From NCBI RefSeq assembly GCF_009931435.1, contig NZ_CP043414.1: a stretch of DNA of 64,000 nucleotides; one strand, 5' to 3'. Shown in pieces: positions 639 to 7,032 of the stretch (position 1 is the first letter of the stretch; each line of letters opens with the position of its first letter). The stretch is from Escherichia coli. GTDB lineage: Bacteria > Pseudomonadota > Gammaproteobacteria > Enterobacterales > Enterobacteriaceae. The translations under genes and the position numbers were made by a program. The notes under the pieces were generated by a model. The model was not told the origin of the DNA, ran no database searches, and saw only the letters and a list, made by a program, of their open reading frames with translations.

Positions 639-816
639 ATCGTATTCCCATTTGTAATAGACAAAAAAAAGAGAAAAGTAAGCCGCCCTTTCAGGTGGAT
701 TACTTTTCTCAGGTCTCTAGTAATTGCAATAAGAAATAACATGGAAAGCAGGGGGGTTGTGTGAGAGTAGTCACGCTTCTGCTTTTTAAAATTATTTGAT
801 AATACGAATATCACAC

Positions 817-832
817 TGTGATTACGATCACA
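817..832. promoter_or_regulatory. Candidate CRP-type operator (TGTGA-N6-TCACA)
   Basis: Sequence tgtgattacgatcaca is a perfect inverted repeat matching both CRP half-sites, in the divergent intergenic region between the MFS gene and ygcW. Confidence 0.4.
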
Positions 833-886
833 TTAGCGCTTATGCCCTTATGCTAAAAATTATCTCCAGTTACCAGAGATAATGAG

Positions 887-932
887 AAAGGTAACTTCCC
901 TCTCGCGGGGGAAGTTACCTTTCTTTTTTTTT
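887..932 (+). terminator. Intrinsic-terminator-like hairpin followed by a T9 run, about 25 nt upstream of the ygcW start
   Basis: aaaggtaacttccc / gggaagttaccttt form a 14-bp stem around an 8-nt loop, followed by c + ttttttttt. Lies in the leader of ygcW, not after a gene. Confidence 0.4.
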
Positions 933-956
933 GCCTTACGGAAATTGGAGCTAACT

Positions 957-1742
957 ATGTCAATCGAATCTCTCAATGCGTTCTCAATGGATCTTTTCTC
1001 CCTGAAAGGTAAAACCGCAATTGTTACCGGCGGGAATAGCGGTTTAGGCCAGGCATTTGCCATGGCGCTGGCAAAAGCAGGCGCAAATATCTTTATTCCA
1101 AGTTTCGTTAAAGATAATGGCGAAACAAAGGAAATGATTGAAAAACAGGGTGTTGAGGTGGACTTCATGCAGGTGGATATCACCGCAGAAGGCGCGCCGC
1201 AGAAGATAATTACCGCCTGTTGTGAACGTTTCGGCACCGTCGATATTCTGGTTAACAATGCCGGTATATGTAAGCTGAATAAGGTGCTGGATTTCGGTCG
1301 TGCCGACTGGGACCCGATGATTGACGTGAACCTGACCGCCGCATTCGAGTTAAGCTATGAAGCGGCAAAAATTATGATCCCGCAGAAAAGCGGTAAAATC
1401 ATTAATATCTGTTCATTATTCTCTTACTTAGGTGGTCAATGGTCACCTGCTTATTCTGCCACTAAACACGCCCTTGCCGGATTTACCAAAGCCTATTGCG
1501 ATGAATTAGGTCAATATAATATTCAGGTAAATGGTATTGCCCCAGGATATTACGCTACCGATATCACCCTGGCGACACGCAGTAATCCAGAAACCAATCA
1601 GCGCGTTCTTGATCATATTCCAGCAAACCGTTGGGGCGATACTCAGGATTTAATGGGCGCAGCCATATTTCTCGCAAGTCCGGCATCGAATTATGTCAAC
1701 GGGCATTTATTAGTGGTTGATGGCGGTTATTTAGTGCGCTAA
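957..1742 (+). CDS. ygcW: Short-chain dehydrogenase/reductase family oxidoreductase (261 aa)
   Basis: ORF-track frame 882..1742; start taken at ATG 957 with GGAG about 8 nt upstream. TGGNSGLG Rossmann motif and YSATK catalytic motif present. Confidence 0.85.
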   Translation: MSIESLNAFSMDLFSLKGKTAIVTGGNSGLGQAFAMALAKAGANIFIPSFVKDNGETKEMIEKQGVEVDFMQVDITAEGAPQKIITACCERFGTVDILVNNAGICKLNKVLDFGRADWDPMIDVNLTAAFELSYEAAKIMIPQKSGKIINICSLFSYLGGQWSPAYSATKHALAGFTKAYCDELGQYNIQVNGIAPGYYATDITLATRSNPETNQRVLDHIPANRWGDTQDLMGAAIFLASPASNYVNGHLLVVDGGYLVR

Positions 1743-1811
1743 TCCATAACGGTGGTTTCTGATTTCTTTTATTAATGACTATTCCATTTTTATTATCAGG
1801 AAGGAATTACT

Positions 1812-3266
1812 ATGTCTTTATCTCGCGCAGCGATTGTCGACCAGCTAAAGGAAATTGTTGGTGCAGATCGCGTAATTACCGATGAAACGGTATTGAAGAA
1901 AAACAGTATTGATCGTTTTCGTAAATTTCCGGATATTCATGGTATTTATACTTTGCCTATTCCGGCAGCGGTCGTAAAACTCGGTTCCACTGAGCAAGTG
2001 TCCCGTGTGCTGAATTTTATGAATGCACACAAAATTAACGGCGTACCACGTACCGGTGCTTCCGCTACCGAAGGCGGGCTGGAAACCGTTGTGGAAAACT
2101 CGGTGGTGCTTGATGGCTCTGCAATGAATCAAATCATTAATATTGATATAGAGAATATGCAGGCGACGGCGCAATGTGGCGTTCCGCTGGAAGTGCTGGA
2201 AAACGCGTTGCGTGAAAAAGGTTACACCACGGGGCACTCTCCGCAGTCAAAACCGTTGGCACAGATGGGGGGACTGGTGGCGACCCGTAGTATCGGGCAG
2301 TTCTCCACACTCTACGGCGCAATCGAGGATATGGTCGTTGGCCTGGAAGCAGTACTGGCTGATGGCACCGTGACACGCATTAAAAACGTGCCACGACGCG
2401 CGGCGGGTCCGGACATTCGTCACATCATCATCGGCAACGAAGGCGCATTGTGCTATATCACTGAAGTTACTGTGAAAATCTTTAAATTCACCCCGGAAAA
2501 CAACCTCTTCTACGGCTATATCCTGGAAGACATGAAAACCGGCTTCAACATCCTGCGTGAAATCATGGTGGAAGGATATCGTCCGTCGATCGCTCGTTTG
2601 TATGACGCTGAAGATGGCACCCAACACTTCACCCATTTTGCCGACGGAAAATGCGTGCTGATCTTTATGGCTGAAGGTAACCCTCGCATTGCGAAGGCGA
2701 CGGGCGAAGGGATTGCTGAAATCGTGGCACGTTACCCGCAATGCCAGCGCGTGGACAGCAAGCTGATCGAAACCTGGTTTAACAACCTGAACTGGGGACC
2801 GGATAAAGTGGCTGCCGAACGTGTGCAGATCCTCAAAACCGGCAACATGGGCTTTACCACCGAAGTCTCCGGCTGCTGGAGCTGCATCCACGAAATCTAC
2901 GAAAGTGTTATTAACCGTATTCGTACCGAGTTCCCACATGCCGACGACATCACTATGCTGGGCGGTCACTCTTCCCACAGCTATCAGAACGGCACCAACA
3001 TGTATTTTGTCTACGACTACAACGTTGTTGACTGTAAGCCGGAAGAGGAAATCGACAAATACCACAATCCGCTCAACAAAATCATCTGCGAAGAAACCAT
3101 TCGCCTCGGCGGTTCGATGGTACACCATCACGGTATCGGTAAACATCGTGTTCACTGGAGCAAACTGGAACACGGCAGCGCGTGGGCGTTGCTGGAAGGG
3201 CTGAAAAAGCAGTTCGATCCTAACGGCATTATGAATACGGGTACTATCTATCCGATTGAAAAATAA
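1812..3266 (+). CDS. ygcU: FAD-linked oxidase (PCMH-type FAD-binding domain, 484 aa)
   Basis: ORF track 1812..3266; full-length relative to the E. coli YgcU family as I recall it. Confidence 0.85.
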   Translation: MSLSRAAIVDQLKEIVGADRVITDETVLKKNSIDRFRKFPDIHGIYTLPIPAAVVKLGSTEQVSRVLNFMNAHKINGVPRTGASATEGGLETVVENSVVLDGSAMNQIINIDIENMQATAQCGVPLEVLENALREKGYTTGHSPQSKPLAQMGGLVATRSIGQFSTLYGAIEDMVVGLEAVLADGTVTRIKNVPRRAAGPDIRHIIIGNEGALCYITEVTVKIFKFTPENNLFYGYILEDMKTGFNILREIMVEGYRPSIARLYDAEDGTQHFTHFADGKCVLIFMAEGNPRIAKATGEGIAEIVARYPQCQRVDSKLIETWFNNLNWGPDKVAAERVQILKTGNMGFTTEVSGCWSCIHEIYESVINRIRTEFPHADDITMLGGHSSHSYQNGTNMYFVYDYNVVDCKPEEEIDKYHNPLNKIICEETIRLGGSMVHHHGIGKHRVHWSKLEHGSAWALLEGLKKQFDPNGIMNTGTIYPIEK

Positions 3267-3359
3267 TGTGTCAGGTAGCGTTTCGCGATGACGGGACGTT
3301 GCCTTTTCGGCTTCTCAACCGGGAAGCCGTTCTTATTACCGGACAATGAAGGGGTAAAG

Positions 3360-4697
3360 ATGAACACTTCACCGGTGCGAATGGATGATTTACCACTTAA
3401 CCGTTTTCACTGTCGAATTGCTGCGCTGACTTTCGGCGCACACCTGACCGACGGTTATGTTCTCGGCGTCATTGGTTACGCCATAATTCAGCTTACTCCA
3501 GCCATGCAACTGACGCCGTTTATGGCGGGAATGATCGGCGGCTCGGCGCTACTTGGCCTGTTTATCGGCAGCCTGGTTTTGGGCTGGATCTCCGACCATA
3601 TCGGGCGGCAAAAAATCTTCACCTTCAGCTTTATGCTGATTACACTCGCCTCGTTCCTGCAATTTTTTGCCACCACGCCAGAGCATCTTATTGGACTGCG
3701 CATTTTGATCGGCATTGGGCTGGGAGGCGATTACTCAGTAGGCCACACCTTGCTGGCTGAATTTTCTCCGCGCCGCCATCGCGGTATTTTGCTGGGCGCA
3801 TTCAGCGTGGTGTGGACCGTAGGCTATGTGCTGGCAAGTATTGCCGGACATCACTTTATTAGCGAAAGCCCCGAAGCCTGGCGATGGTTACTTGCATCGG
3901 CGGCATTTCCTGCCCTGTTGATTACGTTGTTACGTTGGGGAACGCCAGAATCGCCACGCTGGCTACTGCGCCAGGGGCGTTTTGCAGAAGCTCACGCTAT
4001 CGTGCATCGCTATTTTGGTCCCCATGTTTTACTGGGCGATGAAGTGGCAACGGCGACCCATAAACACATCAAAACCTTGTTCTCTTCGCGCTACTGGCGG
4101 CGCACGGCGTTTAACAGTGTCTTCTTTGTCTGCCTCGTAATCCCATGGTTTGTAATTTACACCTGGCTGCCAACTATCGCCCAGACTATTGGACTGGAAG
4201 ATGCGCTGACTGCCAGCCTGCTGCTTAACGCGTTATTAATTGTGGGTGCGCTGCTGGGATTATTTCTGACGCACCTGCTGGCACATCGCAAATTTTTACT
4301 TGGCAGTTTTTTGTTGCTGGCGGCAACGCTGGTAGTGATGGCCTGTTTGCCTTCTGGCTGTTCATTAACGCTGCTGCTTTTTGTTCTCTTCAGTACCACC
4401 ATTTCGGCAGTCAGTAATCTGGTGGGCATTTTGCCTGCGGAAAGTTTTCCTACTGACATTCGCTCGCTGGGCGTCGGTTTTGCCACCGCCATGAGTCGGT
4501 TGGGCGCGGCGGTAAGTACTGGCCTGCTGCCGTGGGTGCTGGCACAGTGGGGAATGCAAGTCACCTTATTGCTCCTGGCGGCAGTGTTGTTGGTTGGTTT
4601 TGTTGTGACCTGGCTATGGGCGCCAGAAACCAAAGCACTCCCGCTGGTGGCGGCGGGAAATGTAGGAGGTGTGAATGAACATTCTGTTAGCGTTTAA
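3360..4697 (+). CDS. ygcS: MFS transporter (445 aa)
   Basis: ORF-track frame 3288..4697; start taken at ATG 3360 (MNTSPVRMDDL...) behind AAGGGG. Multiple TM segments and GR(Q/K) MFS signatures. Confidence 0.8.
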   Translation: MNTSPVRMDDLPLNRFHCRIAALTFGAHLTDGYVLGVIGYAIIQLTPAMQLTPFMAGMIGGSALLGLFIGSLVLGWISDHIGRQKIFTFSFMLITLASFLQFFATTPEHLIGLRILIGIGLGGDYSVGHTLLAEFSPRRHRGILLGAFSVVWTVGYVLASIAGHHFISESPEAWRWLLASAAFPALLITLLRWGTPESPRWLLRQGRFAEAHAIVHRYFGPHVLLGDEVATATHKHIKTLFSSRYWRRTAFNSVFFVCLVIPWFVIYTWLPTIAQTIGLEDALTASLLLNALLIVGALLGLFLTHLLAHRKFLLGSFLLLAATLVVMACLPSGCSLTLLLFVLFSTTISAVSNLVGILPAESFPTDIRSLGVGFATAMSRLGAAVSTGLLPWVLAQWGMQVTLLLLAAVLLVGFVVTWLWAPETKALPLVAAGNVGGVNEHSVSV

Positions 4698-5454
4698 AGC
4701 CGAACCGGATGCCGGAATGCTGGCGGAAAAAGAGTGGCAGGCGGCGGCTCAGGGTAATAGCGGACCGGATGTTTCGCTGCTGCGAAGTTTACTCGGTGCT
4801 GATGAACAGGCCGCTGCCGCGCTTCTGTTAGCGCAGAGAAAAAACGGTACGCCGATGTCTTTAACCGCGTTGAGCATGGGGGATGAACGGGCGTTGCACT
4901 GGCTGCGCTATCTCATGGCTCTTGGGTTTGAGGAAGCTGTATTGCTGGAGACGGCGGCAGATCTGCGCTTTGCGCCGGAATTTGTCGCTCGCCATATTGC
5001 CGAATGGCAGCGCCAGAATCCGCTGGATCTGATCATTACTGGCTGCCAGAGCAGCGAAGGGCAGAACGGGCAAACGCCATTTTTGCTGGCGGAAATGCTG
5101 ACCTGGCCCTGTTTTACCCAGGTGGAGCGTTTTACTCTCGACGCACCGTTTATCTCGCTCGAACAGCGTACTGAACATGGATTACGCTGTTGTCGGGTTC
5201 GCTTGCCTGCGGTGATTGCCGTGCGCCAGTGTGGCGAGGTGGCCTTGCCAGTACCGGGAATGCGCCAGCGAATGGCTGCGGGGAAAGCTGAAATTATCCG
5301 CAAAACTGTTACTGCTGAATCGTCAGCGATGCAGTGCCGGCAACTGGAAAGGCCAGAGCAACGACGCGGTGCAACGCTTCTTGATGGGCAAACGGTAGCA
5401 GAAAAAGCGCAAAAGCTATGGCAGGACTATTTACGCCAAAGGATGCAGCCATGA
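4675..5454 (+). CDS. ygcR: Electron-transfer flavoprotein beta-subunit-like protein (FixA family, 259 aa)
   Basis: ORF track 4675..5454; its stop overlaps the ygcQ start (ATGA). Confidence 0.8.
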   Translation: MNILLAFKAEPDAGMLAEKEWQAAAQGNSGPDVSLLRSLLGADEQAAAALLLAQRKNGTPMSLTALSMGDERALHWLRYLMALGFEEAVLLETAADLRFAPEFVARHIAEWQRQNPLDLIITGCQSSEGQNGQTPFLLAEMLTWPCFTQVERFTLDAPFISLEQRTEHGLRCCRVRLPAVIAVRQCGEVALPVPGMRQRMAAGKAEIIRKTVTAESSAMQCRQLERPEQRRGATLLDGQTVAEKAQKLWQDYLRQRMQP

Positions 5455-6311
5455 ATATCGCCATTGTGACAATAAATCAGGAACATGCCGCAATAGCGGG
5501 CTGGCTGGCGGAGCAGGATTTCAGCGGCAGCACATTAACGCACTGGCAAATCGAGCCGCAGCCGATGGTCGCGGAACAGGTGCTGGATGCGCTGGTAGAA
5601 CAGTGGCAGCGAACGCCTGCGGACGTTGTTCTCTTTCCGCCGGGAACGTTTGGCGATGAACTGGCTACCCGCCTGTCCTGGCGTTTACATGGTGCCAGTA
5701 TATGCCAGGTGACTTCATTAAATATTCCAACCGGAAGCGTACGCAAATCCCAGTGGGGAAATGCGCTAACGGCGACGCTGCAAACAGAAAAACGCCCGCT
5801 ATGCCTTTCCCTTGCCCGCCAGGCGGGAGCAGTGAAAAATGCCACGTTGCCCTCTGGTATGCAGCAACTGAACATTGTCCCCGGCGCGCTTCCCGACTGG
5901 CTGGTTAGCACAGAGGATCTGAAAAATGTTACCCACGACCCATTAGCTGAGGCCAGACGGGTGCTGGTGGTGGGGCAGGGCGGAGAGGCAGATAACCAGG
6001 AAATCGCTATGCTGGCAGAAAAGCTGGGAGCCGAAGCGGGCTACAGTCGGGCGCGAGTAATGAACGGTGGCGTTGATGCCGAAAAAGTGATTGGTATTTC
6101 CGGACATCTGCTGGCACCTGAGGTGTGTATTGTTGTTGGCGCTTCCGGCGCAGCAGCGTTAATGGCGGGCGTCCGCAATAGCAAGTTTGTGGTGGCGATT
6201 AATCATGACGCCAGCGCGGCGGTATTTTCACAGGCAGATGTTGGCGTGGTAGATGACTGGAAAGCGGTGCTGGAGGCACTGGTGACAACCATTCACGCAG
6301 ATTGCCAATAA
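5451..6311 (+). CDS. ygcQ: Electron-transfer flavoprotein alpha-subunit-like protein (FixB family, 286 aa)
   Basis: ORF-track frame 5418..6311; start taken at ATG 5451 (MNIAIVT...) behind AAGGA, overlapping the ygcR stop. Confidence 0.8.
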   Translation: MNIAIVTINQEHAAIAGWLAEQDFSGSTLTHWQIEPQPMVAEQVLDALVEQWQRTPADVVLFPPGTFGDELATRLSWRLHGASICQVTSLNIPTGSVRKSQWGNALTATLQTEKRPLCLSLARQAGAVKNATLPSGMQQLNIVPGALPDWLVSTEDLKNVTHDPLAEARRVLVVGQGGEADNQEIAMLAEKLGAEAGYSRARVMNGGVDAEKVIGISGHLLAPEVCIVVGASGAAALMAGVRNSKFVVAINHDASAAVFSQADVGVVDDWKAVLEALVTTIHADCQ

Positions 6312-6317
6312 CGTGCT

Positions 6318-6423
6318 GCCGGATGATCCTGTCTACGGTTCTGGGCTGGGGACTGTAGGCCTGATAAGACGCGTCAAGCGTCGTATCAGGCGCTGAATGC
6401 CGGATTTGGCATGTGGCCTACAA
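6318..6423. repeat. REP/BIME cluster (repetitive extragenic palindromes)
   Basis: Contains tgtaggcctgataagacgcgtcaagcgtcgtatcaggcg and a second gccggat...ggcctaca unit, typical E. coli REP sequences, between convergent ygcQ and ygcP. Confidence 0.7.
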
Positions 6424-6456: not shown

Positions 6457-7032
6457 TCAAAGCAATTTTTTCGCTAACGTCCAGACCCCGGTATTCGTGG
6501 TGGAAAGCGCCACGACACCGGCGTTAATCGCATTACGCGCATCTTCTTCATCGCACACCAGCCCGCCAGCAATCAGCGGCTGGTGGATTTTCTCCGTTAC
6601 CCAGCCCAGCACTTTAGGCATACAGCCTGGCAGAATTTCAATACAATCAGGATTCGATTGCGCAACCTGCTTATCAATGTTGTGAAAAGAAATCGAGTCG
6701 ACAATAAACAAGCGATGAATACAGAAAAAGCCTTCCGCTCTCGCCGCTTTTAGCATTGACGCTTTGGTACTGATAATGCCGTCCGCCTCGGTCACCAGTT
6801 TCAGAAACTGAATTACTACTTCTTTATTTGATGCGCCTTCCAGCAAATCGACATGAATAAAGGCATATTTCCCGGCACTTTTAATCTTTTTGACGATATG
6901 ACTGATGGTGCAGATATTGCCGTATAACACGGAAATAAACTGGCATTCAGAATCGATTGCCAACTGCAGGCTGGCATTATCTTTAACGGCAGCAATCACC
7001 GGATTCTGGCGGAGCAGGTGTAAGAGGGGCAT
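6457..7032 (-). CDS. ygcP: GlpP-like glycerol-3-phosphate-responsive antiterminator family protein (191 aa)
   Basis: ORF track 6457..7032. Confidence 0.8.
   Translation of the reverse strand: MPLLHLLRQNPVIAAVKDNASLQLAIDSECQFISVLYGNICTISHIVKKIKSAGKYAFIHVDLLEGASNKEVVIQFLKLVTEADGIISTKASMLKAARAEGFFCIHRLFIVDSISFHNIDKQVAQSNPDCIEILPGCMPKVLGWVTEKIHQPLIAGGLVCDEEDARNAINAGVVALSTTNTGVWTLAKKLL

Follow-up and report, generated by a model that had tools for sequence, protein, structure and literature searches.

In Bacillus subtilis, GlpP acting with glycerol-3-phosphate allows transcription past the terminators of the glpD, glpFK and glpTQ leaders (PMC9604022). The glpD 5′ UTR alone transfers GlpP- and glycerol-dependent control to foreign promoters, and GlpP with a leader is in use there as a portable inducible switch (PMC9604022). 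The same logic, a weak 5′ hairpin that overlaps the 5′ arm of a terminator, is found with BglG, SacY and LicT and their RAT targets (E. coli bgl; B. subtilis sac and lic), where a sugar-responsive RNA-binding protein stabilizes the hairpin and the genes controlled are, as at ygc, catabolic operons. At the hut leader of B. subtilis, HutP recognizes NAG triplet repeats ahead of or inside the leader terminator, and the ligand-bound form keeps that terminator from forming (PMC2425495).

Here we compare these systems with a leader RNA of E. coli. The window that we analyzed is the whole 64 000-nt stretch of contig NZ_CP043414.1 (assembly GCF_009931435.1). A hairpin in it, at the start of the ygcW operon, is a real transcription stop signal and one of a mirrored pair. 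It is probably the intrinsic terminator of a protein-dependent antitermination leader that YgcP, with an effector, would open.

With the GlpP system the locus has in common the regulator family (PF04309), an intrinsic terminator in the 5′ UTR directly behind the promoter, and a GAG-rich element in a short hairpin whose 3′ strand also serves in the 5′ arm of the terminator. Both regulons include an FGGY kinase (GlpK there, YgcE in the ygc locus), and both use a catabolite-controlled promoter (CcpA there, CRP at ygc). The ygc host differs in being a proteobacterium, its two targets are mirrored around a shared CRP-controlled spacer, and in the RNA itself the helix has 7 bp as against 4 bp and the GAG spacing departs from that of glpD. 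The targets are ygcWUSRQ and yqcE-ygcE, not glpD, glpFK and glpTQ, and we therefore file ygc as a separate member with a different regulon rather than as the glp system itself. The GlpP antitermination principle is already known; the host phylum, the regulon and the mirrored dual-leader layout are new. No paper linking YgcP to the ygcW or yqcE leaders turned up in the literature that we searched.

The other two systems are more distant in their proteins. BglG, SacY and LicT have CAT-PRD domains, to which the PF04309 fold is unrelated, and their RAT consensus differs; they are controlled by PTS phosphorylation, whereas for ygc we propose a small-molecule effector. The sole antiterminator-family protein identified in the ygc locus is the PF04309 one. 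HutP is a hexameric, unrelated protein acting on two sets of three UAG/NAG triplets, whereas the ygc leader has two GAG in a hairpin loop.

The ygc locus stands in the window in the reverse of its MG1655 orientation, and its yqcE-ygcW intergenic region is ~97.5% identical to that of K-12. This 318-bp spacer has no annotated feature in the curated K-12 record or in PGAP records. On the far side of the operon, ygcP, ygcO and ygcN are convergent with ygcWUSRQ. Where ygcQ and ygcP converge, at 6340-6400, there is a REP-like palindrome (GCCTGATAAGACGCGTCAAGCGTCGTATCAGGC). Coordinates of the main features are collected in Table 1.

Table 1. Features of the ygc locus, in window coordinates
Feature	Position	Strand	Description and basis
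yqcE-ygcE	leftward from start 638	−	Transporter and FGGY kinase YgcE
Twin leader of yqcE-ygcE	662..728	−	Covariance model R1, 52.9 bits, E 6.5e-8
Extended −10 of yqcE promoter, TGtTATTTC	733..741	−	Predicted start ~726-727, from ygcW-like geometry
CRP-like site 2 (putative), TGTGAGAGTAGTCACG	760..775		9/10 consensus positions; 42.5 nt from the A of the yqcE motif
CRP site 1, TGTGATTACGATCACA	817..832		Perfect consensus half-sites; center 41.5 nt upstream of predicted ygcW start
Extended −10 of ygcW promoter, TGcTAAAAA	851..859	+	Predicted start ~866-867, from geometry
Antiterminator hairpin, proposed YgcP site	868..896	+	AGUUACC (868-874) with GGUAACU (890-896); covariation, nascent-RNA fold
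Intrinsic terminator stem-loop of ygcW leader	884..925	+	19 bp (884-902:907-925), 4-nt loop UCGC; fold, covariation and Term-seq; contains the hairpin of the preliminary description
T9 tract of terminator	924..932	+	Sequence; ends 24 nt ahead of ygcW ATG (957)
ygcW	957-1742	+	SDR; start at 957 per RefSeq
Operon under proposed leader control	957..6311	+	ygcW (SDR), ygcU (FAD-linked oxidase), ygcS (MFS transporter), ygcR and ygcQ (ETF subunits); ORFs, Pfam, RefSeq annotation
ygcP	6457..7032	−	GlpP family (PF04309, G3P_antiterm); proposed trans-acting antiterminator

Terminator hairpin of the ygcW leader. A preliminary description of this stretch had pointed to a perfect 14-bp stem followed by nine T residues, about 25 nt upstream of the ygcW start codon and at a place where no upstream gene ends. 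Closer analysis bears out each point: the perfect core pairs 887-900 with 909-922, the T run follows at the spacing given in Table 1, and the neighbor yqcE is divergent, with no plus-strand gene ending upstream. The sequence of 884-932, GAGAAAGGTAACTTCCCTC-TCGC-GGGGGAAGTTACCTTTCTT and then T's, extends the core to the full helix of Table 1 when two G-U pairs are counted, with T924 and T925 able to pair with A885 and G884. The fold energy is −31 kcal/mol compared with −11.8 ± 2.4 for 200 shuffled sequences (z = −7.9), and 0/200 shuffles fold as well, so that the hairpin is far beyond chance expectation. Of 5426 complete E. coli genomes, 5061 have the ygcW leader. When 36 distinct leaders are aligned (A1), 94.2% of the cells in the terminator stem are paired, and five pairs show compensatory changes.

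This terminator acts in the cell. The Term-seq atlas of Adams et al. for MG1655 contains an 'orphan' 3′ end at 2900311(−), 38 nt before ygcW, with 40640 reads in LB at OD 0.4, a Rho score of 0.50 (not Rho-dependent) and an intrinsic terminator score of 15.8 (PMC7815308). The yqcE leader has its own 3′ end at 2900556(+), 36 nt before yqcE (1557 reads; Rho score 0.61; intrinsic terminator score 11.4), and the 'characterized regulatory element' column is blank for both (PMC7815308). Because the 3′ ends in both leaders are Rho-independent and carry intrinsic terminator scores, we take the terminators to stop transcription in vivo. The suggestion in the preliminary description that the hairpin forms the 3′ end of a short RNA also holds, since an abundant 3′ end within the hairpin means that a short terminated leader RNA exists. 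The 61-nt sequences of the published table extend 10 nt past each coordinate. The coordinates correspond to C919 and T674 of the window, which are inside the 3′ arms and ~10 nt short of the end of the T runs; this implies either that exonucleases removed the U tail and the lower part of the stem with its weak A-U pairs, or a mapping effect.

Alternative helix. Within 840-930, where an antiterminator fold competing with the terminator had been thought worth looking for, one is present at 868-874:890-896 and is supported by covariation. Its 15-nt loop (875-889, AGAGAUAAUGAGAAA) bears GAG-N5-GAG. Among the folds of the nascent RNA 866-906 the helix has the lowest energy, −6.7 kcal/mol, and its stability is unremarkable (z −0.95 for ygcW, +0.22 for yqcE), while the complete leader folds as the terminator, at −31 to −34 kcal/mol. 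Positions 890-896 are part of the terminator 5′ arm, and the two structures therefore compete. A 5′ hairpin this weak, set against so strong a terminator in the full leader, suggests that termination is the default and that a factor would be needed to hold the 5′ hairpin.

Conservation favors the helix as a real structure. In A1, 99.6% of its cells are paired; one pair changes from C-G to U-A and another from A-U to G-C, and the only one-sided changes are U-A to U-G, which are wobble-compatible. In the wider alignment of 76 distinct instances (A2), 93.4% of cells are paired and three pairs show compensatory changes (G-C/A-U 52:22, U-A/C-G 48:22, and one A-U to G-C), representing only ~4-5 independent events. 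Control registers slid along the alignment gave 15-57% pairing overall, and 20-57% when slid by 1-3 columns on A1. Position 890 changes in concert with 874 as well as with 919, its partners in the two folds, as is characteristic of structures that exclude each other. In one GlpP-linked leader (L050) the predicted start leaves the helix without a 5′ strand, so the alternative helix is possibly not universal.

Promoters. The CRP site at 817-832 is bound in ETEC by ChIP-seq (PMC4287617), and its Kd in vitro is 1.7 nM (PMC12871828). From the best CRP-like site to the A of AGTTAC the distance is a constant 43.5 nt in most genera, and an extended −10 of the form TGnTAxxxx keeps a fixed spacing ahead of the motif in all genera. 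With transcription predicted to start at ~866, CRP would be centered at −41.5 and the RNA motif would run from +3. The putative second site, 760-775, falls at class II distance from the predicted yqcE start. Its homologue in other genera is TGTGAGAATAATCACG. The published ChIP and footprint tables list the perfect site 817-832 only, 760-775 being absent from them.

Twin leader. With a covariance model (R1) built from A1, essentially every locus that contains the spacer proves to have another copy of the leader in it, on the opposite strand. In the window, this yqcE leader pairs AUUACU (724-719) with AGUAAU (704-699) around the loop AGAGACCUGAGAAA; its terminator occupies 710-671, followed by T8 at 670-663, which ends 24 nt before the yqcE ATG. 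[quoted passage not shown] The ygcW and yqcE leaders each stand behind their own CRP or CRP-like site and extended −10, in mirror-image layout. Neither reading nor the covariance model found a copy of the motif in front of ygcN (the queD-ygcN gap), and ygcNOP does not appear to belong to the target set.

Conservation across genomes. We gathered 48 loci via YgcP homologues. A PF04309 protein adjoins every motif copy examined in them, a co-occurrence that is partly built in by choosing the loci through that protein. The ygc gene set with YgcP is syntenic in 40+ genomes, the gene order queD-ygcNOP / ygcQRSUW / yqcE is kept across Enterobacterales, and the Firmicute Thalassobacillus too has ygcU-ygcW-ygcP. 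Upstream of ygcW or yqcE homologues the motif occurs in Enterobacterales, Vibrio, Clostridium and Bacilli. In Vibrio hannami, Clostridium sediminicola and Fodinisporobacter (L052, L054, L056) a YgcP-like gene lies beside SDR, FAD-oxidase, FGGY-kinase, ETF and transporter genes, and each locus has two R1 matches of 26-58 bits directly upstream of cassette genes. The full set of SDR, FAD-linked oxidase, FGGY kinase, ETF, transporter and PF04309 protein retains 55-70% protein identity across Proteobacteria and Firmicutes, which suggests horizontal transfer of a complete pathway along with its regulator and RNA targets.

In the collected loci, ygcW homologues are preceded by CAGTTACYAGAGAYNATGAGAAARGTRRCTTCCC-loop-GGGGARNTTRCYTTTCTC-T8-9 with two exceptions, an E. 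coli strain whose leader has been replaced by IS1 and a Limnobaculum with a collapsed spacer. In the former (strain 510016, L003:3248-4020) only 73 nt separate the ygcW ATG from the end of an IS1A copy upstream of it. The insertion has taken the place of yqcE-ygcE, both promoters and the entire leader, and the gene on its other side is now queE; ygcW there no longer has a CRP promoter or an attenuator. In Limnobaculum eriocheiris (L034:13855-13986) the ygcW-yqcE spacer is only ~130 bp and has one hairpin, with A9 on one side and T9 on the other, that R1 matches on both strands. The two mirror leaders appear to have fused there, with loss of both promoters and both 5′ antiterminator strands.

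YgcP and GlpP targets. YgcP, annotated as a putative antiterminator in NC_000913.3, matches PF04309 in Pfam with 210 bits (E 2e-62; cut-off 27), and its homologues in the PDB are 3KTS (Listeria GlpP, E 3.6e-29) and 1VKF. Its identity to canonical GlpPs is only ~35-40%. We know of no published consensus for GlpP sites, and the B. subtilis comparison covers the glpD 5′ UTR only, taken from a paper supplement. That UTR reads ...GGUC[CUGAGAUGAGGAGA]GACC running into the terminator, or in continuous form GGUC[CUGAGAUGAGGAGA]GACCACAGC..., and thus has a short helix whose 3′ strand opens the terminator and a GAG-rich loop. Its counterpart in the ygcW leader is AGUUACC[AGAGAUAAUGAGAAA]GGUAACU, the likeness being one of sequence only.

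Further GlpP representatives were considered for their leaders. In L050, L051 and L060 the GlpP homologue gene adjoins an operon for a DAO/BFD-type glycerol-3-phosphate dehydrogenase, and the leaders carry WGAGA-N3-4-KGAG at the foot of the terminator, with a 10-bp alternative helix in L051; L057, L058 and L059 were uninformative, being too short or without an adjacent target operon. We wrote a descriptor consisting of GAG-N4-5-GAG, in which a stem begins at the second GAG and is closed by CUC, and a U tract. Scanning ~2 Mb of strands with it gave 66 sites, 66/66 of which are in these leaders. We lean slightly toward the view that the ygcW and yqcE leaders define a phylogenetically wide RNA family not described before, in which WGAGA-N2-5-GAG, in a hairpin or single strand at the terminator foot, would be the general recognition element of PF04309 proteins (GlpP/YgcP).

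Proposed mechanism. The preliminary description had proposed a transcriptional attenuator or ligand-responsive leader for ygcW-ygcQ, which the Rho-independent 3′ end and the covarying alternative fold support; the ligand is most likely sensed by the GlpP-family protein YgcP rather than by the RNA itself. In our model cAMP-CRP would activate a class II promoter, with transcription starting at ~866. The first 30 nt of RNA would fold as the weak hairpin 868-874:890-896, presenting GAG-N5-GAG in its loop. By default the stronger terminator (884-925 and U9) would capture the strand 884-896, stopping transcription 24 nt before ygcW and releasing an RNA of ~55-65 nt. With effector, YgcP would sit on the 5′ hairpin and GAG element and keep 884-896 from the 3′ arm; the terminator would then be blocked and the polymerase would read through into ygcWUSRQ. 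Equivalent control of the mirror leader of yqcE-ygcE would give positive feedback, like that of B. subtilis glpFK. The effector may be the phosphorylated product of YgcE: this protein is an FGGY kinase like GlpK, which makes its product the most natural candidate, by analogy with the glycerol-3-phosphate that GlpK supplies.

Several other readings of the hairpin have to be set against this. The leader RNA might sense a metabolite directly, as a small riboswitch in which 868-896 is an antiterminator stabilized by ligand without a protein. The loop is indeed highly conserved and the helices are mutually exclusive, but only ~18 nt stand ahead of the terminator and the sole fold is a 7-bp stem with a 15-nt loop. 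An Rfam 15 scan of 500-1200 on both strands found no family match even at E up to 10, only sub-threshold ones, the best of which scored 13-23 bits against gathering scores of 58-111 and were all driven by generic hairpins. A known antiterminator-family protein adjoins every copy examined, in loci selected via that protein, and the GAG-rich element is common to a validated B. subtilis GlpP target. A riboswitch is on these grounds very improbable. Less so, though still unlikely, is a constitutive attenuator or insulator, or a gene for a short stable trans-acting RNA, with read-through independent of YgcP. The 40640 Term-seq reads in LB at OD 0.4 indicate that a short RNA accumulates, and sRNAs typically end in a strong hairpin and a U tail. 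The abundance of the short RNA means that it may have such a role in addition to regulated termination. An RNA gene or constitutive stop, however, would not explain why each of the divergent operons has the same element, always 24 nt ahead of its start codon; cis elements account fully for the conserved sequence, and in a constitutive stop the covarying alternative helix would have no role.

We give least credence, very little indeed, to the idea that +3 to +30 is a DNA operator with an incidental hairpin, or that translation begins at the ATG at 882 and yields a leader peptide or a longer form of YgcW. An operator could make use of the inverted repeat ATTATCTC-N9-GAGATAAT at 859-866 and 876-883 in E. 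coli, but this repeat is not conserved outside Escherichia, and the substitutions seen keep G-U-compatible pairing, which is relevant in RNA only. As for the ATG, it does open an ORF (882-1742, plus strand) in frame with ygcW, but no Shine-Dalgarno stands at the proper distance from it, neither the yqcE twin nor the leaders of Vibrio, Clostridium and Thalassobacillus have it, and RefSeq starts ygcW at 957 behind a GGAG Shine-Dalgarno (947-950). Starting inside the motif, the ORF passes through the hairpin and T run, which are translated as ...LPFFFFALRK.... Leader-peptide attenuation was rejected because the only ATG, 882, has a frame that runs into ygcW without a stop and is unconserved in the twin and distant leaders. 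An origin from a REP or mobile element was ruled out by the fixed position, the covariation and the presence of just two copies per genome. A preQ1 riboswitch, which came into question with queD and queE on either side of the locus, was dismissed on the negative Rfam result and on the Vibrio and Clostridium cassettes, which have no que genes.

The ygc/yqc genes belong to those blocks of the E. coli K-12 genome that still await an assigned function. If control of the leaders by YgcP is true, it would be the second protein-dependent catabolic antitermination system in E. coli besides BglG. It would also place the cryptic ygc cassette under a self-amplifying loop of kinase, effector and antiterminator, offering a handle on the cassette substrate; an inducer screen via the leaders would expose that substrate as well. 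The proposal would tie YgcP, which had an antiterminator annotation without a known target, to two leader RNAs of ~65 nt each, and it makes that annotation testable. The YgcP-leader model accounts for two abundant 'orphan' 3′ ends that lacked an assigned regulatory element in the Term-seq atlas. The 76 distinct instances are alignment-quality data for an RNA family absent from Rfam, and an orthogonal YgcP-leader pair could serve as an inducible switch in the way that GlpP and its leader do.

Two further observations were made in passing. In a Pluralibacter MAG (L026:790-1481) weak R1 matches recur every 61 nt, a periodicity that points to a CRISPR array close to the ygc genes. Within ygcN, the Term-seq data have a 3′ end ~85 nt into the gene, at K-12 position 2892741 (+) (~8489 in the window, minus strand), with 1077 reads and a sequence ending ...GCGCGCGAGCGGGTTTATCCG.
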